From contig JBKAGE010000077.1 of NCBI GenBank assembly GCA_046290225.1, forward strand, positions 32,001 through 96,000: a DNA stretch of 64,000 nt. The letters run 5' to 3'. Every line of letters starts with the position of its first letter. Within the stretch, counting starts at the first letter, position 1. The DNA comes from Bradymonadia bacterium (GTDB lineage Bacteria > Myxococcota_A > Bradymonadia > UBA7976 > UBA1532). Under the pieces are notes generated by a model that was not told the DNA's origin, searched no databases, and worked only from the letters and a program-made list of their open reading frames with translations. Below, one piece after another: positions 52,673 to 64,000 of the stretch. Position numbers and translations under genes: made by a program.

Positions 52673-54016
52673 ATGCTCAAGCACGCCAGCGCCGTCGCCA
52701 TGGGCCTTACCCTTGCCCTGAGCACACTGGCCCATGGCCAGTTTGTAGGTGGTCAGGGGGCTCAAATCGCTGACGGACTTTATGATCCGATCAGCGTCAG
52801 CCATCCATCATGTGCACCGCTGGCGCCGCCAGCAGGGCCGACGATTCAGATCGGTCCGGCGAATGCGGACACGCTGCCCTCGACGATCCTCAACGCTGCG
52901 TCGGGCACGGTGATCGTTCTCGAAGATGGGGTCTACACGTTCAGCTTCCAGGACGAGGCCTCGCGCCGTCTGCGGTTCGAGACACCCAACGTCACCCTCA
53001 CCTCGTTGTCGCAAGATGCCACTCGGGTGATCATTGATGGTGAGTATCTCACCAACGAGATGGCGTACATCACCGCCTCGAACATCACGATCTCCCACAT
53101 CACCTTCACCCGGGCGGTGGATCACCTGATCCACCTCACGCCGACTACAGGGGTGAACTCGACGAACGTGAAGCTCTATGGGCTGCGCCTCATCGATTCG
53201 GGTGAGCAGTTCATCAAGGGCAACCCCAACCCCGGTCGTACAGCCTGGCCCGACGACACCGAGGTGGCCTGCTCGGTCTTCATGCTCACCGATGACGGTC
53301 GCCCCAACGTGTCGACAGCAGTGAACGGCTGCTACACCGGCGGCATCGATGTGCACGGCGGCCGTGACTGGCACGTCCACCACAACTACTTCGGTGGCAT
53401 CTACTGCAAGAACGGCTCACTGGCTGAGCACGCGGTGCACTTCTGGCGTGGGGCCCGCGACACCCTCGTGGAGCAGAACATCATCGTCAACGGCGCGCGA
53501 GGCATCGGCTTTGGTCTGGCGAGCACCGGTGAGACCCGGCCTTACAACGACAACCCCTGCCCGGGTGCCAACGGCGGCTACGTGGGCCACCACGGAGGCA
53601 TCATCCGCGGCAACATCATCTACGCCGAGCATGCGTACTACGACGCAGGCATCAGCCTCGAGCAGGCCTGCGGCGTCGAGGTGCTTCACAACACGGTCTT
53701 CGAGACGAGCGACGCCTCCAACGGCTTCTCGTCAATCGAGTACCGCTATGACAACACCGACGCGTTGATCCAGAACAACATCACCCGCTTGATTCGCCAG
53801 CGGAACAACGGCTCGGCGACGACGCTCAACAACATCCAAGACGCCAAGAGCAGCCTCTTCGTGCGCCCCGACGCACGGAAGCTCGGCTTCCAGCTGCGCG
53901 CCTCGGCCACCTCCGCGGTGAACCAGGGCGCAGCCACGGCCAACGCAGGTGTCGATCTCGAGGGCAACGCCCGCAACAACGGCAACCCCGACATCGGCGC
54001 CCTCGAGCGGCAGTGA
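52673..54016 (+). CDS. Exported right-handed parallel beta-helix protein
   Basis: Signal peptide; [28 protein letters not shown]-terminal PDIGALE. Confidence 0.85.
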
Positions 54017-54027
54017 GGAGGCTGATC

Positions 54028-57000
54028 ATGAACCGCACATACATCTCTCGTAAGCGTTTGCTTCAAGCCCTCGCCGGCGCCTCGGTCATGGTGGCCACCT
54101 CGACAGCCTGGGCCACGATGGACCGCCACCACAGCTGTGTGGTGTCGACGACGGGTGCACTCTACTGCTGGGGCGCCAACGCCTCGGGCCAGCTCGGCCA
54201 GGGCGACGCCAACCTACGTGGTAACGATGCCAACGAGATGGGGGCCAACCTCTCCGCGGTGAGCCTGGGCACGGGCCGCACAGCCACCCGGGTGGCCATC
54301 GGCGACGATCACACCTGCGCGTTGCTCGACGACGCCTCGGTGAAATGCTGGGGTGACAACGCCTCGGGCCAGCTCGGACAGGGCAGCACCTCGACGCTGG
54401 GCGACGGCGCCAACGAGATGGGGGACAACCTCACCGCCGTCGATCTCGGCACTGGCCTCGCGGCGATGGCCGTGGCAGCCGGTAACACCCACTCCTGTGC
54501 GCTGATCACTGATGGCCGCGTGAAGTGCTGGGGGGCCAACGATTTTGGCCAGCTCGGCCTCGGTGACACCACCGTACGCGGCGACGACGCCAACGAGATG
54601 GGCGACAACCTGCCCTTCGTCGACCTCGGCACCGGCCGCACGGCGACGGCGCTGAGCGCTGGCGCCCATCACACCTGCGCGTTGCTCGACGACGCCTCGG
54701 TGAAGTGCTGGGGCGCCAATGATTTCGGCCAGCTCGGCCAGGGCAACACCGCGATCCGCGGTGATGACATCAACGACATGGGCGATCTGCTGCCCGCGGT
54801 GGCTCTCGGTACGGGCCGCACAGCCCTCGATCTCACCACGGGTGCAGATCACAGCTGCGCGCTGCTCGACAACGGCCGCCTCAAGTGCTGGGGCTACAAC
54901 GGCTCCGGGCAGCTCGGTCAGGGCGACACGGCCCACCGCGGTGACGGCGCCAACGAGATGGGCGACAACCTCGCAGTCATCGATCTCGGCGGCGCGGTGG
55001 GGGCAGGCCTCACGGTGCTGGCGGTGGCCGCCGGCGACGATCACACCTGCGCCCTGCGGGACGACAACACGGTGAAGTGCTGGGGTGCCAACATCTCGGG
55101 CCAGCTCGGCCTGGAGAGCACCGATACACTTGGTGACGCAGCCAACGAGATGGGCAACGCCCTCGCCACGGTCGACCTGGGTACGGGCCGTACTGCTGGT
55201 GCGCTCGGCGCCGGCTCGGATCACACCTGCGCGGTGCTCGACAACAACACACTGGTCTGCTGGGGCCTCAACCAGCACGGTCAGCTCGGTCAGGGCGTGA
55301 CCACCTGGTGGGGCGACGGGGCCGACGAGATGGGTGACGATCTCGTGGCGGTCTCCCTGAGCGGCACGCCCGAGCTGCCGATGAACTTCGGCGGCCTGAG
55401 CCGCTGCCCGGATCAAGATCTCGACGGGGTCTGTGACGCCGACGACAACTGTGTGGCCAACGCCAACCTGAACCAGGCCGATGCTGACGCTGACGGCCAG
55501 GGCGATGTCTGTGACGTCTGCCCCAACGACGCCAACGACGACGCTGACGGCGACGGTCTCTGCGCCGACGTGGACAACTGCCCTGGCGCAGCAAACGCCG
55601 CCCAGACCGACACCGACGCCGACAGTCTTGGTGATGCCTGCGATGTCTGCCCCAACGACGCCACGAACGATGCTGACGGTGATGGGGTCTGCCAAGATGT
55701 AGACAACTGCCCCGGCGTGGCGAACCCCAACCAGGAAGACAACAACGGCGACGGCTACGGCGATGCCTGTGTGAGCCTCGGGGCGAACATCCATCCCACG
55801 GCCACCCTGGGCAGCGCCGTCGTCGTGGGCAATGGGGTCACCCTCGGTCCCTACGCCGACGTTGGCGACGGTGCCACGGTTCTCGGTGACGTGGGCGACA
55901 ACAGCAGCATCGGTGCGGGCTCGGTGGTCGGCGCAGGCTGTGTGGTGGGCAACGCCGTCGTCCTCGGCGCCAACGTCTCCCTCGGCGCCAACTGTGTGGT
56001 CGACACCCTCGCCGAGATCGGCGCGGGCAGCAGCGTCGGCGTCGCCGGCAGCGTGGGCACGCAGAGCACTCTGGGCGCCAACGTCACTTTGGGTGACGGG
56101 GTCTCTGTCGGCGCCATCTCCCAGGTGGGCGACAATGGCAACTTCGCCGCCGGCTCATCTGTATCGCCAAACACCATCGTGGGCGCCAACGCTCAGGTGG
56201 GCACCAACAGCGCCATCAGTGGCAACGCCCGAGTGGGTGACGATCTCGTCCTCGGCGCCGATGCGGTCATCGGGCCCAACAGCATCATTGGCGATCGCGC
56301 CGCCTTCGGTGACAACACGTCCACTGAGGCCTACGCGGTCATCGGCAATGACTTCTCCATTGGCGCTGGCTCCGAGATGGCCTCGGGCGCCACAGCCGGT
56401 AACGATGTCAACATCGGCGCCGGCGTCGAGGTCCGTGGTGCCCTGGGCAACCGCGTGATTCTCGAAGACAACGTCTTTGTGGGCAACCAGAGCAACGTGA
56501 GCGACGACTGCCACCTGCAGACCAACGCGAGCCTGGGCATCTTCGTCGATCTCGGCACCAACTGCGCCATCAGCCCCGACGTGGCGATCTTCGATGGTGC
56601 AAGCCTCGGCGTCGACGCGGTCATCGGCGCTCGGACGACAATTTTGTTCCGCAGCACCCTCGGGGATCGTGCCGATGTGTCCACCGACACGATCATCGAC
56701 GAGCAGGTCACCATCGGCGATGACTTCACCCTCGGCGCAAACAGCCGCCTCTGGCCCCGAAGCACGTACGGCAACGACGTCACCATCGGCGCCAACACCC
56801 TCATTCGCGACACGGCGACTGTGGGCGATGGGGTCATCGTGGAGGACAACGTTCTCATCTACCCCGAGGTCAACATCGGGGATGAGACGATCATCCGCGC
56901 GAGCGTGGAGATTGGCGTGGAGACCTGTGCCACCCGCGTGTGTGGTCAGGTGGACATCGGCGGCTGCCTCGACGTGAACGCTGATCAGGCACCGGGCACG

Positions 57001-57678
57001 ACCCTCGCTGGCCAGTGCGAGGCGACGATCGTGGTGAACGGCGCGAGCCGCAACTGGTCCGATGGCACCTACGCCACGGCCTGTCACGACTACCGCTACC
57101 CCGACGGGGTGGACTACGTGTACGGCGGCGCCACTGGTGATGGCCGCTACACCATCGACACCGACGGCAGCGGCGGCGACGCGCCCTTCGATGTGTACTG
57201 CGACATGACGACTGATGGTGGTGGTTGGACTCTGGTGGACAACGACGCCACCAACGCTGGCACCTTCGGCTCACGTACTCTGGGTGCCAACACCGACATC
57301 AACACCACCCGCGGCGCGGTGCTGCCGTCCTACGACTGGTCGGCCAGCCCCCAGCTGCTCTGCAAGTCGAGCCGCTTCACGGGCACGCTGCCCTGGCTCA
57401 CCTTCAACGTCGTCTCTGCATCAGGCCGCAACTACCCCACGACGACGACGATTGCTGCAGCTGGCTCCGGCGGTCACTTCTCCTACGCCAACCTCAACGG
57501 AAACACCGCTCGAGGCACGGCGGCCTGGATCTACGTGGGCAATGGCCGCTTCGGTTCGGTCTGGATCGGCGCCGGCAGCAACAGCACCTGCTCGTGCAAC
57601 TACGGCAGCGGTCGCCACACCGGCCTGGGCACCTACGGCCCGGGTACCTCTGCAACCTGTAGCACCTGGGTTCGCTAG
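54028..57678 (+). CDS. RCC1 + TSP3 + left-handed beta-helix + fibrinogen-like ([11 protein letters not shown]) exported protein
   Basis: GAGGAGG RBS before ATG 54028; one RCC1 module, TSP3 repeats, hexapeptide region, [15 protein letters not shown]. Confidence 0.9.
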
Positions 57679-57765
57679 GCTCCGGTGCTCCGGCGGCGTC
57701 AGCCGCCGTGAGCGCCTCCGCGGGGTTCGTGCATGCGTAGGTGGCGGCCTCGCTGACGCTCGCAA

Positions 57766-58062
57766 AGAGAGTTTTTCGGGCACGGGCACGGGCACGGGCA
57801 CGGGCACGAGTTGATACATACTCTGACCCGTGGCCTTGCCTGAGTTCAGGGCGAAGATTGTCATTACAACTGAGATGGTGAGCTTCAGCACAGCCTGAGA
57901 ATTCAGGTCTTGGGGGGTATGGAGGAGGTCAGAACCTCCACTGAGAAAAGCGTGGGGCTGAGTAGAGCCTCCACCACCATAAACCTACGAGCGGAGCCAT
58001 GCTGGGCTACGGGTCAGAGTATGTATCAACTCGTGCCCGTGCCCGTGCCCGAAAAACTCTCT
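57766..58062. repeat. Inverted-repeat element with internal GGGCAC hexamer tandem arrays
   Basis: AGAGAGTTTTTC-(GGGCAC)5-GAGTTGATACATACTCTGACCCGT at 57766-57831; inverted copy with 3 hexamers at 58005-58062. Confidence 0.9.
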
Positions 58063-58663
58063 ACCGCTGGTTATCAGCAGACACCCCAAAGAGCCAAGCG
58101 ATGTTCGCTCGGGGCTGATGACAGTTGATGCAGAAGTCGACCTGGCCAGTGAACGACGCAGTCCCATCATTCTCGATGCGGGCCCACCACCAGTCCTCAG
58201 CACCGTTGTCGAAGCCCTCGCCCACCTTGGCCATCACCGTCAGAGCGGTGGGATCACCGTCAGCGTTGAACTGAGGTTTGACGAGCATTGCCCCAGCGGG
58301 GATGTCGAAGTCGCCCTCGGTAGCCTCCGGATCGATGCCGCGGTAGACATCGACGATGTCGTTGCTCACCCAGTAGTCCACCATATCGCCACCATGCTGC
58401 GACATGCGGCGCTCGCTGTTGATCTGGGTGAAGCCCTCGTCCTGGTAGGCCACAGCCCGGGCCACGAAGGCAGCCTCGTCGAGGCCACCGCCAGCACCGC
58501 CCTCAGGGGTGCCGCCCATGGCCTCGCCGCCGGCGCCGCCCATGGCTTCTCCGCCCGAGCCGGCCTCTCCACCACCATCATCGTCGTCGCCACCACAGGC
58601 GAAGAGGGTCAGGCTCAGCGAGGCGATCAACAGTCGATTCCAGCGGCGTTCAACGATGCGCAT
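58061..58663 (-). CDS. Cytochrome P460-like lipoprotein
   Basis: LTLFAC lipobox; PAGAMLVK, LTVMAK, DWWWA, CINCH heme motif. Confidence 0.8.
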   Translation of the reverse strand: MRIVERRWNRLLIASLSLTLFACGGDDDDGGGEAGSGGEAMGGAGGEAMGGTPEGGAGGGLDEAAFVARAVAYQDEGFTQINSERRMSQHGGDMVDYWVSNDIVDVYRGIDPEATEGDFDIPAGAMLVKPQFNADGDPTALTVMAKVGEGFDNGAEDWWWARIENDGTASFTGQVDFCINCHQPRANIAWLFGVSADNQR

Positions 58664-59795
58664 GATGGCTCCTTTTATCGGGTATGCCACAGGCAGTGAA
58701 GGCCTTGGCAAAGGCCTGCCTGCCTCGGGCGTCGAGATGGTTGTAGAGGAAAGCCCGGCCGTCGCACATCGCGTCGGCGTGTTGCCTCACCCCCTTGTCG
58801 TCAGAGGTGAGGGCACACTGGAGGTCAAAGCGCCCCAAGGGCACCTCTCGCTCAGGGCATTGGAACTTCGTGCCTTTGTCGGTGGTGATGCGCTGCACCT
58901 CGGCGCCGCTCGGACACGTCACCGAAACACACGGATCAGCAGCGTTGGGATCGTCGGGCCGATAGCCCTCCAACGGCGCGTGATCCACCAACAAGGTCTT
59001 GGGCGTGAAGAAGCCCACGGCGTCGGTGCCGCGGTTCACATTGATGGGCGATGGCCCCGTGGTGATCTCAGGGCGATGGCTGGTGTGACAGCCAGCACAA
59101 TCCGAGCGGGCGCGGTACACCTTGATGGCCTTCTTCCGCCGCTTGGGACGGGTCTTCCATGGGAAGCCGACGCCCTGGCGCATCGCACCGTAGATCGCCT
59201 CGTGCACCTGCCCTTTGACCGCCTGATCGCCTCGAAGCCAGGTGTAGCCGAACAGATCCGCCTCTGCTCCAGGGCCCACAGGCCGGAACACGCGGAAAGT
59301 CTGAGCCCCGTCAGCACCGATCTCGGTGCCGCGTACATCGGCCACCCGGTAGGGCGCCTGCGCCTTGGGTCGCCAGTACTCCACCCGATCGGAGATTGTG
59401 CCCTTCGGGTAGTCGAGGGTCAGCTGACCATGAGGACCTTCCACTGTCTTGATCACACCATCCTTGGGGATCTTCAGCCAGATACGGGTGGTGGAGCGGC
59501 CCCCGGTTCCGCCGGGCAAGTGCACTGGCGGTGTCAGAGAGACGAACCCCTGATCAGCCCACCATGTCTGCTGGCCAGAGATGATCGTCGCCCCTTCTGG
59601 AGGCGCGGGCGACCCGTGGTCATGACTGTGATCGCCATGATCATGACTGTGATCTCCATGGTCATGCCCATGACCATCGTGCTCGTGGCTTCCACCGGCG
59701 CTGATGAAGTACGCGCCGACGAATGCGCCGATACACACCGCGGCGACACCGAGCATCTTCGCCAGGGTGGCAGCATCTCGGCCCGGACCGCTCAC
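58650..59795 (-). CDS. Membrane-anchored His-rich c-type cytochrome-like protein
   Basis: N-terminal TM, HEHDGHGHDHGDHSHDHGDHSHDH tract, CAGCH motif, extra Cys. Confidence 0.7.
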   Translation of the reverse strand: MSGPGRDAATLAKMLGVAAVCIGAFVGAYFISAGGSHEHDGHGHDHGDHSHDHGDHSHDHGSPAPPEGATIISGQQTWWADQGFVSLTPPVHLPGGTGGRSTTRIWLKIPKDGVIKTVEGPHGQLTLDYPKGTISDRVEYWRPKAQAPYRVADVRGTEIGADGAQTFRVFRPVGPGAEADLFGYTWLRGDQAVKGQVHEAIYGAMRQGVGFPWKTRPKRRKKAIKVYRARSDCAGCHTSHRPEITTGPSPINVNRGTDAVGFFTPKTLLVDHAPLEGYRPDDPNAADPCVSVTCPSGAEVQRITTDKGTKFQCPEREVPLGRFDLQCALTSDDKGVRQHADAMCDGRAFLYNHLDARGRQAFAKAFTACGIPDKRSHHAHR

Positions 59796-59796
59796 C

Positions 59797-60546
59797 TCAA
59801 CGCTCCGGAGCAGGCCAGCGGGCCTCGATGTCGGCGATGACCGGAGATCCGAGGATGCCCGCGCGCTTCAGCTCGAGGGCCGCCTCGACGAGGGCCTTCC
59901 GAGATACACCCGCCTGAGCACAGACCTCGGCGTTGGCCTCTTCGTTCGCCCAGGCGAACGCCACCAGCATGGGCAGGGTGGGCTGGATGAACCGCACCAT
60001 GCGATCGCTGGGGCGCCGGTAGAACAAGATGGTCACCGGCGTCGGCTTCAGCGGGATATCACGGCCACTCTTGATGCCTCGGATATAGCCCGGCACCGTA
60101 TGGGTGTAGGCTCGGATGCTCGCCGTGGGGTTCACGACGTCGGCTTCTACGTCGAAGGGTCGCGTGTCACGGGTGGTCGTGTAGTAGAGATACTCGTAGT
60201 CGGCGATTTGAGCCCACAGCTCACGGGCTTCGAGATCAGTCTGCTCGATGAGCCAACCGGCAAAGCCTTCACCGAAGACGTTGAGATCCCAGTGGCTGCT
60301 GGGTCGCCCGAGGGCATAGGTGTCCACGAGAGCCCGCCAGGCCTTTCGCTCACCCACAGCCTGCTCTACGCCGGGATACAGGTAGCCCATGATCCGCCGA
60401 TGGTTGGCGCGGATCAGCTGCGCATAAAAGGCGATGTGATCATCACGAGAGGGCGAGTCGCCGAGGCGTTGCTGCAGCTCGGCAGGATCAATCTCTCCGC
60501 GCAGGAACGGCACCATGGCGTCGAAGAACTGCTGCAGGTTGCTCAC
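59797..60546 (-). CDS. DUF2063-type MNIO partner protein (HvfC/BufC-like)
   Basis: FYAQL...LYPGV...W..LV..Y...PS...L..FGEGFAGWL...ADYEY pattern; ATGA-coupled to the DUF692 gene. Confidence 0.85.
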   Translation of the reverse strand: MSNLQQFFDAMVPFLRGEIDPAELQQRLGDSPSRDDHIAFYAQLIRANHRRIMGYLYPGVEQAVGERKAWRALVDTYALGRPSSHWDLNVFGEGFAGWLIEQTDLEARELWAQIADYEYLYYTTTRDTRPFDVEADVVNPTASIRAYTHTVPGYIRGIKSGRDIPLKPTPVTILFYRRPSDRMVRFIQPTLPMLVAFAWANEEANAEVCAQAGVSRKALVEAALELKRAGILGSPVIADIEARWPAPER

Positions 60547-61379
60547 GCCTCACCCCCAACGGCCTCGGGCGTGGCGAACTTTTGCCAGATGGCCCGGGCC
60601 TTGTCGGCCTCGTCGATCACGCGATCGAGGGGCGGGATCTCCATGTCCCACTCGATGAGGGTGGGGGCTGGCCCCGTGCGGTGCAACGCCTCGCTGTACA
60701 TCTGCCACACCGGATCGATCACCGGGCTGCCGTGGTTGTCCACGGCGAGATCTCCGACATACTTGTGGCCGGCGAGGTGAATACGCCCGGTCTTCTCCAA
60801 GGGCAGAGCCTGTAGATCAGCATGGGCGTCGGTGCCGTGGTTGTGGGCGTTCACGTACACATTGTTCACGTCGAGCATCAGGCCGCAGCCGGCCTCTTCG
60901 ATGACCGTGGTGACGAACTCACCTTCAGTCATCTCGGCGCCGGGCATGATGGCGTAGGTGCTCACGTTCTCGAGCAGGATCGGGCGCTCGAGCATCTCCT
61001 GCACCTGCTTGACCCGTCGGGCGATGTGCAACGCCGCTTCGTGGGTAAATGGCAGGGGCAGGAGGTCATAGAAATTTTGACCGTGGGCCGTGGCGAAGCA
61101 CAGATGCTCGGTGAACACCGGCACGCCGAGCCGATCGAGCAGGGCTTTCACCAGCTCGATGTGACCCCGGTCAATCGGATCAGGCCCACCGAGGGACATG
61201 GACACGCCGTGCACCCCAATGGGCCAGCGCTCGGCGCAGGCGTCGAGGGTCTTGCCCCCGACGCCGCCGTTGGCGATGAAGTTCTCGGGAATGATCTCCA
61301 ACCAGTCGATCTGTCGATCAGTCTTCTGGATGCTGGAGAAATGCTCCCGCCTCAGGCCAATGCCCACTCCCTCTTCCAT
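60543..61379 (-). CDS. DUF692 multinuclear non-heme iron oxidase (MNIO; MbnB/TglH/ChrH/BufB family)
   Basis: GIGLRREH, EIIPEN, HGVSMSLG, EHL, DLLPLP, LENVSTY, LDVNNVYVN, HLAGH, DNHG, IEWD. Confidence 0.95.
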   Translation of the reverse strand: MEEGVGIGLRREHFSSIQKTDRQIDWLEIIPENFIANGGVGGKTLDACAERWPIGVHGVSMSLGGPDPIDRGHIELVKALLDRLGVPVFTEHLCFATAHGQNFYDLLPLPFTHEAALHIARRVKQVQEMLERPILLENVSTYAIMPGAEMTEGEFVTTVIEEAGCGLMLDVNNVYVNAHNHGTDAHADLQALPLEKTGRIHLAGHKYVGDLAVDNHGSPVIDPVWQMYSEALHRTGPAPTLIEWDMEIPPLDRVIDEADKARAIWQKFATPEAVGGEA

Positions 61380-61385
61380 GGACGC

Positions 61386-61850
61386 TTACTCCTCGCCCTC
61401 GTCACCGGGGCAGCCCGAGGGACAGCCGGCCTCGCCACCCTCGCCATCGTCGGGGCAACCAGCGGGGCAACCCGCCTCGCCGCCCTCACCGTCACCGGGG
61501 CAACCACCGGGGCAGCCGGCCTCACCACCGGCGGGGCAACCTGCAGGACAGCCTGCATCACCACCGGCTGCGGGGCAACCAGCGGGGCAACCGGCAGGGC
61601 AGCCCGCAGGGCAGCCTGCGTCACCACCAGCTGCGGGGCAACCGCCGGGGCAGCCAGCCTCACCACCGGCGGGGCAGCCTGCGGGGCACCCGGCCTCACC
61701 GCCCATGGCCTCACCGCCGCTGCCGGCTGCGGCCTCACCACCGCTGCCGCCGCTGCCGCCATCATCATCATCGTCACAGCCACCAGCGGCGAGGCCGATG
61801 CCGCCAGAAAGCAGAGCCATAGCCAGGATCTTGGAGGTCGACTTGAACAT
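61386..61850 (-). CDS. Putative MNIO RiPP precursor; lipoprotein-like, 16 Gly-Cys-Pro motifs
   Basis: MFKSTSKILAMALLSGGIGLAAGG-C-DDDDD then [ED]AGCPxGCP repeats; ends 6 bp before the DUF692 start; GGGGAAG RBS-like site upstream. Confidence 0.85.
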   Translation of the reverse strand: MFKSTSKILAMALLSGGIGLAAGGCDDDDDGGSGGSGGEAAAGSGGEAMGGEAGCPAGCPAGGEAGCPGGCPAAGGDAGCPAGCPAGCPAGCPAAGGDAGCPAGCPAGGEAGCPGGCPGDGEGGEAGCPAGCPDDGEGGEAGCPSGCPGDEGEE

Positions 61851-61952
61851 ATTTACTTCCCCATATGGTCGTTATTGCACTGCGCTCGGGACGTCAGGCC
61901 CCTGGCGATGTGTACATGACATCGGGCTTCACAGCACAGTGCTAGGGAAAGA

Positions 61953-61979
61953 TACGTGGGGTGGAAAAAAGGTGTTACA
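61953..61979 (-). promoter_or_regulatory. ECF sigma-type promoter for the MNIO operon
   Basis: Minus strand TGTAAC-N17-CGTA about 100 nt upstream of the precursor ATG, with AT-rich sequence further upstream. Confidence 0.65.
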
Positions 61980-62191
61980 ACTGTTTTGTTTTTTTGCTGA
62001 AACAGCACAAAAAACGAGTTGAACCTGTATCAAAGGCGCAAATTTAGCGGGTACGAATATGTTGGCAAATCACTCAACGTGAAGTCCATTTCAATTATTC
62101 GGACTCGTCATTGCGTTTACCTTGATGATTGAGCACACACCAAAGTGCAGCTGTGTGGCAGGCAGGTTGCACCGATCATCGGAGCGCGTGC

Positions 62192-63088
62192 TCAGGCTGC
62201 GTGGGCGTTCATGCGGGCGGGGCTGCCCGAGAGCGTACGCTCGAAGAACGCGTCCATGACTGCCCAGAGCCCCTGACCAGCGCCGCGACGAAAGCCGCGA
62301 AAATGCCCAATTGCTGAAGCGCCCAAATCCTCGGGTCGATACACCGAGTGCTCGGTGGGGGCACGGGGCAGCAAATGTACGAAGTCTGCAGTGGCCTCCG
62401 GCGTGATGTACGTATCATCCGTCACCGAGAGGTGCAGGTTCGGCACCTCGAGGGGTGCCATGATCGAGCGGATCAGCTCGCGCTCTTCTCGCGTGAAGTA
62501 ACCAGGGGTGCTGCAACGCCGCGCCCACTCTCGAGCCACCCCACCAGGCAAATCTTCAGAGGTGCCCATCCAACCGGGCAAATAACCGATGAGCCGCGCC
62601 GTCGTGGGCATGAGCATCTTCAATTGCCACATGCGCCGCCGGCGGAGATGGGCCGGTGCGAGGCCATAGTACCCGCTCCCCGAAGCCACAGTGATCGAGC
62701 CTGTGGGCTCGTGCAAGGCACCGGTCCTCAACATGGCGTGACCGCCGAAGCTGTGACCCACATAGAACAATGGTCGACCCGCAGCGCGCCCTCGGCCCTG
62801 GTCGCATGCCGCCCGGAAGTCCTTGAACATCCAGTCGCTCATGCTGATAGCGTCACCCTTGATCGAACCCCGGCGAGATCCGCCGATGCCCCGATAATCA
62901 TAGGTAAAGACTGTGTGTCCCTGCCCCACGAGGTGCTCGGCATATTGATCGTAATACCCCTGAGGCACCGCTGTGGCGGGATGCATGACCGTCACAGGTC
63001 CGTCATCTGCCGTGTGCTCTGCAGTGAACCAGCGCCCCGCGAGCAGGTGGCCGTCGGTGGACTCGAATTCGATGGGGGTGATCTGCAT
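62192..63088 (-). CDS. Predicted alpha/beta hydrolase
   Basis: PATAV, YDYRGIG, GHSFGG nucleophile elbow, DD acid, GHF. Confidence 0.9.
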   Translation of the reverse strand: MQITPIEFESTDGHLLAGRWFTAEHTADDGPVTVMHPATAVPQGYYDQYAEHLVGQGHTVFTYDYRGIGGSRRGSIKGDAISMSDWMFKDFRAACDQGRGRAAGRPLFYVGHSFGGHAMLRTGALHEPTGSITVASGSGYYGLAPAHLRRRRMWQLKMLMPTTARLIGYLPGWMGTSEDLPGGVAREWARRCSTPGYFTREERELIRSIMAPLEVPNLHLSVTDDTYITPEATADFVHLLPRAPTEHSVYRPEDLGASAIGHFRGFRRGAGQGLWAVMDAFFERTLSGSPARMNAHAA

Positions 63089-63190: not shown

Positions 63191-63204
63191 TTGCAAAAAC
63201 GCAA
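63191..63204. promoter_or_regulatory. Possible LysR operator dyad
   Basis: TTGC-N6-GCAA abutting the LysR start, between divergent genes. Confidence 0.45.
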
Positions 63205-64000
63205 TGCCAGATAACGTACCCGGTCTGAAGTGGGATGACGTGCCCTATGTACTCGCCGCGGTTCGCCTCGGCTCGTGCGCCGCTGCGGCCCGCACCCTCG
63301 GCGTGGCGGTGACCACGGTGACACGCCGTATCGCGGCCTTCGAAGCCGCCATCGGGCGCCCGGTGGTCCGCCTCACCCGAGATGGTGTCAGCCTCACTGA
63401 GGCAGGTGCCGGCCTCATGGATCATATGGTGCGTATCGAAGAGGCCATGGTGGGGCTCTCACGACAGCTGAAGAGCGGTGATCACCCCTCGGGACCTGTG
63501 CGCGTCACCACCCTGGAGACTGTGGCTACGGCGTTCCTGGCACCCAACGTCGGGGCCTTCGTCGAACAGCACCCGGACATCGAGCTCACTTTGAAGGGTG
63601 AAAACCGCTCCGCCGACCTTCTGCGGGGTGAGGCCGACATCTCCGTGCGTCTAGGACGCCCTCGACAGAAAGATCTCGTGGTACGCCGGCTGGGCCTGGT
63701 GCACTTCGATCTCTTCGCCTCCGCGGGCTACATCGAGCGCTGGGGCCGCCCTGATCCGGAGCACCTCGACGGGCACCGCCTGGTGACATTCACCCGGGAC
63801 TTCAACCACATCTTCATCGTGCAGTGGCTCTCGGAGCGCTCCCAAGGGGCCCAGGTGGTGTGCCGGTCGGTCCACACCACCACACTCCTCGAGATGATCC
63901 GAAGCGGCGCCGGGATCGGGCTGCTGCCCACGCGTATGGGCGAGGGGCTGGTGCCTCTGAACGCCCAGAATCTGCCTGGCGCTCCGCTGTGGCTGGCGTT
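63204..64000 (+). CDS. LysR-family regulator (runs off the right edge)
   Basis: Not in the ORF track. Manual translation MPDNVPGLKWDDVPYVLAAVRLGSCAAAARTLGVAVTTVTRRIAAFE...ADLLRGEADISVR. Confidence 0.9.
   Translation, partial: MPDNVPGLKWDDVPYVLAAVRLGSCAAAARTLGVAVTTVTRRIAAFEAAIGRPVVRLTRDGVSLTEAGAGLMDHMVRIEEAMVGLSRQLKSGDHPSGPVRVTTLETVATAFLAPNVGAFVEQHPDIELTLKGENRSADLLRGEADISVRLGRPRQKDLVVRRLGLVHFDLFASAGYIERWGRPDPEHLDGHRLVTFTRDFNHIFIVQWLSERSQGAQVVCRSVHTTTLLEMIRSGAGIGLLPTRMGEGLVPLNAQNLPGAPLWLA

Follow-up and report, generated by a model that had tools for sequence, protein, structure and literature searches.

A putative copper-peptide operon from a Bradymonadia bacterium combining a Cys-Pro repeat lipoprotein precursor, an MNIO enzyme pair and two candidate haem proteins of P460 type

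All characterised members of the MNIO-partner group concerned here, in which an MNIO enzyme (DUF692 family) works with a DUF2063 partner protein, have been reported to install 5-thiooxazoles and to bind copper (PMC13097082). What would such an enzyme pair make of a precursor in which each target cysteine is followed by proline, and what would two haem-motif proteins do in the same operon? The question is raised by a locus of a Bradymonadia bacterium (NCBI GenBank assembly GCA_046290225.1, contig JBKAGE010000077.1, positions 32,001 to 96,000 of the forward strand), a stretch of 64,000 nucleotides referred to here as the window, whose own numbering is used for coordinates. As judged from sequence comparison, the locus most likely represents an undescribed branch of the copper-peptide systems known as captophorins and bufferins, with an acidic precursor of lipoprotein type built on Cys-Pro sites. 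We consider it fairly probable that the MNIO and its partner, as predicted, make 5-thiooxazoles from the 16 cysteines of the Cys-Pro sites, the likely product being a membrane-tethered copper peptide that works with two P460-type haem proteins.

The operon lies on the minus strand and comprises five genes, designated here A to E: the precursor gene A (61386-61850, 154 amino acids), the MNIO (DUF692) gene B (60543-61379, 278 amino acids), the gene C of a DUF2063 partner of PME type 1 (59797-60546, 249 amino acids), the gene D of a His-rich CxxCH protein (58650-59795, 381 amino acids) and the gene E of a P460-family lipoprotein, which occupies 58061-58663 if translation starts at the ATG of residue 17 (200 amino acids) or 58061-58711 if it starts at a TTG (216 amino acids). 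A gap of 6 nt separates A from B, B and C overlap by 4 nt, C and D are 1 nt apart, and the overlap between D and E amounts to 14 nt with the ATG start of E and to 62 nt with the TTG start. A preliminary description of the locus, made from the letters of the DNA, had spoken of five co-oriented genes with gaps or overlaps of 14 bp or less, in the order precursor, DUF692, DUF2063, His-rich CxxCH protein and P460-like lipoprotein; the open reading frames (ORFs) and their spacings are as it had claimed when the ATG start of E is taken, and the order is borne out by the ORFs together with family searches.

The precursor A starts with a lipoprotein-type signal peptide which ends with LAAGGC, the lipobox cysteine being C25. 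It has 17 cysteines, C25 and 16 others, and all of these 16 lie within GCP motifs that form eight non-overlapping GCPxGCP doublets. The mature protein is built of G, A, C, P, E, D, S and M alone and carries 23 acidic and no basic residues. A does not fit the Buf_EGKCG/oxazolin (Lys-Cys) precursor family: its mature part is devoid of Lys, and 16 of its 16 target cysteines have Pro after them. No match to A was obtained in Pfam and NCBIfam at E ≤0.01, DUF2282 included. The motif had been called unlike the known ones at the outset, and this stood: besides the absence of family matches, the available part of the table of Cys-rich ORFs in the captophorin study holds no GCPA or GCPT, and GCPG occurs there in three ORFs and is repeated only in one, a Lys-rich peptide with GCPGK twice.

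An A-like ORF, with a signal peptide ending in Cys followed by GCP repeats, is located directly before the MNIO gene in 12 related loci (loci are numbered here with the prefix L), and the repeat units found there include AGCPGTT, EAGCPGT, EAGCPGAGG and GCPSGCPT. In the 14 precursor proteins compared, the signal peptide has a terminal Cys without exception and Pro follows 120 of 130 cysteines (the first Cys excluded); where it does not, the site is Cys-Ala (L030, L039) or a second Cys of the signal peptide (L002). The precursor of L039 (9432-9809 of that locus) has an Arg-rich stretch in the middle of its repeats, probably a frameshift in this metagenome-derived sequence. It might be argued that A is no gene, its frame staying open by chance in DNA that is repetitive and rich in GC: the protein is of low complexity, a phmmer search with A among 8000 word-based candidates gave none at E ≤0.001 (a result which the low complexity makes uninformative on rarity), and long shadow ORFs overlap the gene. 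Since ORFs of this design recur at the same place in the 12 other loci with differing repeat units and differing DNA, and A ends 6 nt from the start of the MNIO gene, we find this explanation barely credible.

The product of B aligns with PF05114 (MbnB_TglH_ChrH) at E 2.8e-102, its residues 4-265 covering model positions 1-262 of 263. It scores 319.7 bits against the equivalog model NF050167 (MNIO_BufB), above the cut-off of 310, and 298 bits against the equivalog model NF003818 (HvfB), below the cut-off of 360. Every column that holds an invariant H, D, E or N among 32 aligned MNIOs is retained in B (H57, H92, E137, D170, N173, H201, D214, H216, E243 and D245), and we take these residues to be the iron ligands. 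The product of C is a divergent member of DUF2063, with 39.1 bits against PF09836 (cut-off 27.2) and 26.1 bits against NF050145 (HvfC), which lies below the cut-off of 142. The assignment of 60543-61379 to DUF692 and of 59797-60546 to DUF2063, for which the preliminary description had proposed a search with hidden Markov models, was thus confirmed. A C-type partner is encoded 3′ of the MNIO in 13 of 13 related loci, and the order typical of captophorin and bufferin clusters, i.e. a Cys-rich precursor with a Sec signal, then MNIO, then DUF2063, is found in the window and in 12 related loci. At one of these (L009, 5879-6620) the C-terminal half of the C gene is lost to an Arg-rich frame, probably by a frameshift, and the public gene call merges C with D. 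The apparent DUF2063-D fusion P0002 is the sequence of this same locus and was dismissed as a frameshift or gene-call artefact on account of its Arg-rich linker.

In a maximum likelihood tree of 32 MNIOs the 14 enzymes associated with Cys-Pro precursors form a single clade (ultrafast bootstrap 96; SH-aLRT, the approximate likelihood ratio test, 85), sister to the enzymes of the myxobacterial K(K/S)CG-repeat clusters L017 and L006. The identity of B to enzymes of the K(K/S)CG type is 45-54%, and only three positions, all of them conservative, are specific to the Cys-Pro clade. By this phylogeny the MNIO is a clade within the BufB/HvfB-type group of thiooxazole-forming enzymes. The proposal of an undescribed subclass put forward in the preliminary description therefore needs to be divided: it holds for the Cys-Pro precursor, which matches no described family, and it does not hold for the enzyme in the sense of a distant branch.

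Proline within a peptide chain has no N-H. For this reason the azetidinone route to a thiooxazole would be closed at Cys-Pro, and with Pro after the target Cys the enzymes of this clade would use the direct route or make something else. The captophorin study draws two routes and favours over direct ring closure the one with a 4-thioxo-2-azetidinone intermediate, for which the residue that follows Cys must supply its N-H; FonBC, the only enzyme with a mapped substrate scope, is reported to reject Pro wherever it was placed and, in the position following Cys, to accept Gly and Ala alone (PMC13097082). It is from these points, and from the variety of reactions on record for the MNIO family, that another explanation draws its strength, namely that the MNIOs of this clade install a modification other than thiooxazole, or modify the sites partly, the product being a new kind of MNIO-modified peptide. 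We hold this to be unlikely, if well worth keeping in sight, as B passes the BufB equivalog cut-off and has its 45-54% identity to the K(K/S)CG-type enzymes, the clade-specific changes in the MNIO are few and conservative, the alternative direct route works without a downstream N-H (PMC13097082), and the published Lys-rich peptide bears its two GCPGK sites.

Thiooxazole formation being the preferred reading, the part played by the two CxxCH proteins comes next. The product of E is of lipoprotein type and has a CINCH motif at 194-198. The family PF16694 (Cytochrome_P460) is matched by 13 of 13 aligned E homologues, at best with 4.4e-27. The AlphaFold2 model of E has a pLDDT of 75 overall and of about 85-95 over residues 80-216, and when it was compared with known structures by Foldseek, ranks 1-13 were all P460 or c′-beta proteins (probability 0.97-1.00, target-normalised TM-score 0.48-0.65). 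The invariant K145 of E aligns with K78 of Methylococcus P460 (McP460, 6HIU), which presumably is the residue cross-linked to haem, the cross-linked Lys being what sets P460 apart from c′-beta proteins; the c′-beta protein 7EAD has Phe at this position. Taken from homologue profiles and the model, the assignment of E to the P460 fold is a firm one; against the family model itself, the window protein stays just under the cut-off. In the window, the tether of E (CGGDDDDGGGEAGSGGEAMGG) and the beginning of mature A (CDDDDDGGSGGSGGEAAAGSGGEAMGG) are alike. A tandem double P460 lipoprotein is encoded in the sister K(K/S)CG cluster L017.

The product of D, which fits no family of Pfam or NCBIfam, has a predicted N-terminal helix (residues 7-33 of the model), 11 His within residues 35-62 and a CAGCH motif at 233; 0 of 18 members of its own family could be placed in a Pfam family. 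A profile search of 1.84 billion representatives returned 372 family members at E ≤0.001 and 264 at E ≤1e-30, with CxxCH present in all of the best 150 among the 372. C233, C236, H237, T257, D258, G261, C294 and C313 are invariant. In the AlphaFold2 model (pLDDT 85.6, predicted TM-score 0.81), a beta-sheet and two helices precede the helix with CxxCH, and about 140 further residues with four conserved cysteines make up the C-terminus. An exhaustive VIA-align comparison of the D model with 48,161 chains gave P460 or c′-beta proteins as all of its top five (Z 4.4-4.8), and hhalign related the D and E families with 66% probability (E 5.5e-5, 59 columns), aligning the invariant R137 of D with K145 of E. 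Foldseek with the D model against the PDB found none at E ≤0.001, and its top rows (rotavirus VP8*, TM-score about 0.1) are meaningless; neighbours of D in the ESM Atlas (TM-score 0.40-0.46), some in clusters with cytochrome c domains, serve as leads only. From model and sequence D probably has a P460-like core, and it may tentatively be seen as a distant paralogue of E in which Arg has replaced the cross-link Lys.

Some features of D and its relatives deserve a record of their own. The His-rich tract, made of HDHGDHS units, is encoded by a tandem repeat of 21 nt (59620-59666), and it is absent from 17 of 17 aligned homologues, which marks it as a recent addition in the genome of the window. 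P0038, a protein of 1544 amino acids, has LVIVD-like, Big_5 and PKD domains, a MauG-like di-haem peroxidase domain and a RoxA-like cytochrome domain; a full D domain comes after these in the same frame, preceded by a membrane helix and a lipobox. This protein (MauG-like and D) and P0043 (D and amidase) may represent neighbouring genes read as one.

How closely D and E are tied to the Cys-Pro precursor was seen from their distribution. A scan for MNIO similarity over one genome per species returned 21 loci, six of which (L001-L005 and L009, from Nannocystaceae, two strains of Enhygromyxa salina and other Myxococcota bins) have Cys-Pro precursors. D is present in 6/6 of these and in 0/15 of the others; E is present in 5/6, and 1/15 of the others (L017) has a P460-like gene. 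The precursors of the remaining 15 loci are of the EGKCG, K(K/S)CG, DUF2282 or TIGR04222-like kind, or none was recognised. The preliminary description had proposed to look at the neighbours of the MNIO clade and had named a lack of conservation of the cytochrome genes beside homologues as one result that would tell against it; what was found beside the MNIOs of the clade is Cys-Pro precursors and CxxCH genes. Searching whole genomes for D gave 2 of 113 genomes of the window's class and 11 of 401 genomes of an even sample of the phylum. Among the 12 D loci outside the window, MNIO and partner genes adjoin in eight, and at another, L031, the contig ends right after a GCP precursor. E orthologues scoring above 160 bits adjoin D in seven of the eight genomes which have them in the sample of 401, the eighth being that of the sister cluster L017. 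The nearest relative of the window, L039, belongs to the same taxonomic family, shares its gene order and has an MNIO of 68% identity; elsewhere the order is either D-A-B-C-E or A-B-C-D-E and the set is retained. Across 13 related Myxococcota loci the gene set is conserved.

One locus, L037, goes further. Its P460-like protein (L037:9440-10036) bears seven GCPTG repeats between the lipobox and the P460 domain; a separate precursor is missing, and the space that separates D from the MNIO gene is too short for a precursor ORF. In at least one lineage, then, Cys-Pro repeats and haem domain are predicted to be a single polypeptide. With A, D and E expected at one membrane face, this fusion makes a physical or redox partnership the simplest reading. 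It is conceivable, and we give the idea a low but not negligible chance, that the modified repeat, far from being a free metal sponge, is in general a tethered cofactor arm or subunit of a P460-fold haem redox module which passes copper or electrons, the two being fused in one lineage, and that its formation at Cys-Pro would show thiooxazole synthesis to bypass the azetidinone.

The same distribution bears on the suggestion that D and E are stress cytochromes which act on nitric oxide or hydroxylamine like the known P460 and c′-beta proteins, sharing a promoter and a regulon with the peptide and not acting on it. The fold of E and the Lys in its cross-link position are those of P460, P460-like genes are frequent in the phylum and mostly unlinked to MNIO genes, and genes of AhpC/TSA, DsbH-like and DsbA-like proteins beside several clusters would suit general envelope-stress islands. 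The occurrence of D in every Cys-Pro locus and in none of the 15 other MNIO loci, the fusion of repeats to a P460 domain in L037 and the retention of the set despite changed gene order, with genes that overlap or nearly touch in the window, point the other way, and we rate this suggestion as rather improbable. The defence genes in question, for thiol and peroxide defence in the periplasm, lie at L017 1591-3690, L033 8645-12626 and L035 8087-10046 and encode AhpC/TSA, a DsbH-like thioredoxin and double DsbA-like proteins.

Cys-Pro dipeptides serve as haem regulatory motifs in eukaryotic and some bacterial proteins. A might accordingly hold haem or deliver it to D and E, with the MNIO tuning only some sites, a view for which 16 Cys-Pro sites next to two CxxCH proteins and the fusion of the L037 repeats to a haem domain could be quoted. 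It appears very improbable to us: A stands where a substrate canonically lies, ahead of an MNIO and partner that are intact, ordinary captophorin repeats of the K(K/S)CG kind are found in the sister clusters, and the repeats of L030 and L039 include Cys-Ala sites.

The accessory gene that one might expect in place of D and E is doxX. The preliminary description had noted its absence from the cluster, rightly, since the 8.58-Mb genome contains one DoxX match only, of 25.3 bits and on another contig. A scan at E ≤1e-5 of 73 ORFs that flank 12 Cys-Pro loci, and of 20 more beside L002 and the sister loci L006, L008 and L017, found neither DoxX nor a sigma-factor domain. Its absence as a feature of the clade was accordingly upheld in part: DoxX is missing here, and it was not found beside the K(K/S)CG sister clusters either, so that the absence is not special to the Cys-Pro clade and looks like a general trait of these myxobacterial clusters. 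DoxX has been reported to be dispensable for bufferin function and modification, and the buf2 cluster of Caulobacter vibrioides is also described as lacking it (PMC11626156).

The claim that the operon stands behind an ECF-like promoter (ECF, extracytoplasmic function) rested on a real motif match. A sigmaF-type ECF promoter-like sequence, GTAACA-N16-CGTA, is located at 61953-61978 on the minus strand, 128 nt upstream of the start of A, and it is the sole GTAAC-N16-18-CGTA in the 64-kb window on both strands. The sigmaF site of Caulobacter has been given as GTAACC-N16-CGAA (PMC3511200), and the buf clusters of Caulobacter have been placed within the SigF copper-stress regulon (PMC11626156). 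In the genome of the window one gene of an NrsF-family anti-sigma factor was found (37.7 bits, cut-off 26.8), at 1471-2127 on the minus strand of L044 (G000:C37:300512-304036) by family score, directly after an ECF-sigma-like ORF of 191 amino acids identified by eye (L044 2131-2706, minus strand); about 85 nt upstream of this operon there is GTAACC-N15-CGTA. A sigmaF-type motif was also seen at an estimated 125 nt before the probable start of the precursor of L023, another cluster of this genome, and in two Enhygromyxa salina strains the precursor genes are preceded, at a distance of 66-71 nt, by GTAACC-N16-CGTA. Over 420 kb of related loci, counted on both strands, the motif occurs four times, three of them before a precursor. 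It is likely, by this sequence evidence, that the pair encoded in L044 regulates the MNIO clusters.

The genome has six MNIO genes in all, the further ones lying in the loci L023-L027 on contigs C40, C82, C79 and C48. L023, a second captophorin-like cluster, has an MNIO and a DUF2063 partner together with a precursor of lipoprotein type whose repeats read EK(G/S)CSG, and L024 has a precursor which, judged by eye, is a DUF2282-like bufferin 1. Genes of LysR-type regulators were noticed near the cluster in the window (63204-63998, plus strand) and in five of 12 related loci scanned (L004, L005, L030, L036 and L037). Only within the trio L030, L036 and L037 do these proteins look orthologous, with 39-45% mutual identity. 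LysR as a shared regulator was rejected: the window protein is 25-27% identical to those of L004, L005 and L036 and has no match at 1e-3 to those of L030 and L037.

The course of events that we propose for the window is as follows. B and C would act in the cytoplasm on full-length A, with the signal peptide serving as leader, as in HvfA and the bufferins; the HvfBC and bufferin enzymes have been described as acting on precursors bearing a Sec signal in the cytoplasm (bioRxiv 10.64898/2026.07.17.739211; PMC13097082). Each Cys of a Cys-Pro site would lose 4 Da and become a 5-thiooxazole, the preceding carbonyl attacking directly. Modified A would then be exported by Sec and lipidated at C25, and pairs of thiooxazoles in the GCPxGCP doublets would bind copper. 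D, through its membrane anchor, and E, as a lipoprotein, would carry c-type haem at the same membrane face as A and could be redox partners of the bound metal or of the thiooxazole thiols, in the accessory place otherwise held by DoxX; the haem might change the redox state of bound copper in either direction, hold the thiooxazole thiols in their reduced form, or have another role. Expression of the operon would respond to metal stress via the sigmaF/NrsF-like pair.

A hint of metal in favour of this scheme is given by D itself, whose 11 His fall within 28 residues right after the predicted N-terminal helix. A number of observations weigh against it. Pro after every target Cys conflicts with the tolerance of FonBC, and a changed specificity of the window enzymes is needed; a search of the clade MNIOs for a signature of Cys-Pro specificity gave no determinant, and the site equivalent to Phe250 of FonB, which is T, L, M or N in the clade, is non-Phe in the sister K(K/S)CG clusters too. 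The assignment of D to a fold is weak (Z below 5, nothing from Foldseek, 66% in hhalign), and E of the window reaches 25.7 bits against PF16694, short of the cut-off of 27. P460-like genes are found in 74 of 401 genomes of the phylum at 1e-8, mostly at other places. Three of the 12 D loci (L032, L038 and L040) have no MNIO nearby, no E was seen over 10.8 kb in L002, and the sole P460-like gene of L036 is a weak one. Of 18 upstream regions in related loci, 14 lack the promoter motif and 4 have it, and many of these loci come from metagenome bins, some with probable frameshifts.

As for the surroundings of the operon, an element resembling a miniature inverted-repeat transposable element (MITE), about 297 bp in length (57766-58062), follows immediately on the stop codon of E. 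Runs of the CGGGCA hexamer are found in its terminal inverted repeats (57766-57842 and 57998-58062), and about 40 near-full-length copies of 75-86% identity are scattered over many contigs of the genome; the copy behind E may double as a terminator hairpin for the operon. A scan of 57600-62300 with Rfam gave zero matches at E ≤0.1. Among sequencing runs listed for this DNA there was none of RNA, and two of DNA, from one study, with shares of 0.22 and 0.09. Convergent with the operon, on the plus strand (54013-57678), a secreted protein of 1221 amino acids is encoded which has RCC1 and thrombospondin type 3 repeats, a long left-handed beta-helix of the hexapeptide type and a fibrinogen C-terminal-like end.

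If the scheme holds, several consequences follow. The choice between the azetidinone and direct ring closure was left open in the 2026 captophorin study, and a natural substrate in which all sites are Cys-Pro bears on it. Copper peptides have been known as Lys-rich or as folded small proteins; this clade would extend their range to acidic, Lys-free, membrane-anchored repeats, and the published substrate rules would not hold across the whole enzyme group. The P460 fold would gain a context outside nitrogen-oxide chemistry, one of the two proteins concerned (D) coming from an as yet nameless family with a few hundred representatives, and the unexplained accessory position taken elsewhere by DoxX would have a second occupant in the form of two haem-motif proteins. 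The combination of a Cys-Pro precursor, an MNIO pair and two haem-motif proteins was not found in the papers searched, and it would serve as a test case for thiooxazole chemistry. Our literature search returned no paper joining thiooxazole with Cys-Pro or MNIO with cytochrome P460, and nothing relevant for cytochrome P460 with Myxococc*. In the accessible text of the MNIO landscape paper (PMC12452194) Myxococc*, cytochrome, P460 and GCP go unmentioned, and the ORFs discussed here could be among its unclassified small ORFs with 1-18 Cys. Two cluster-bearing Enhygromyxa contigs are absent from the part of the MNIO-partner list of the captophorin study that was available, which may be due to C being too divergent for the partner model.

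Among known systems the closest are the Lys-Cys captophorins with EGKCG repeats, oxazolin (HvfABC of Haemophilus influenzae), fontiphorin (FonABC) and gonophorin (NgoABC). The window shares with them the gene order (first a repeat-type Cys precursor that carries a Sec-type signal, next the MNIO, last the DUF2063 protein), its MNIO falls in the same large group, and its sister clades carry K(K/S)CG repeats; it differs in that the target Cys stands before Pro instead of Gly, that the precursor is of lipoprotein type and in its mature form Lys-free and strongly acidic, and that two P460-type CxxCH proteins are co-inherited and DoxX is missing. The bufferins of Caulobacter vibrioides, Buf1 (DUF2282) and Buf2, resemble it in that the window MNIO passes the BufB cut-off and in the sigmaF-type motif with an ECF sigma/NrsF pair, and about 16% of Buf2 precursors have been predicted to be lipoproteins (PMC12452194). 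Unlike them, the window has a disordered Cys-Pro repeat in place of DUF2282 or a folded 6-Cys domain, and haem proteins are present. The lipidated peptides of the ChrH subfamily (PMC13056109) are described as having a lipoprotein-type signal on an MNIO precursor as well; they belong to another MNIO subfamily with macrocycle and heterocycle chemistry, whereas the window enzyme is of BufB/HvfB type and accompanied by DUF2063. In comparison with the P460 and c′-beta proteins of Nitrosomonas europaea, Methylococcus capsulatus and Thermus thermophilus, E agrees in fold, in its C-terminal CxxCH and in the Lys that occupies the cross-link position of McP460, and D, on weak evidence, in a beta-sheet core followed by the CxxCH helix. 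E departs from the known P460 proteins as a lipoprotein with a long acidic, Gly-rich tether encoded in a peptide-maturation operon instead of a nitrogen-cycle context, and D departs from them in having R137 for the Lys, two helices inserted before the CxxCH and the additional C-terminal region of about 140 residues.

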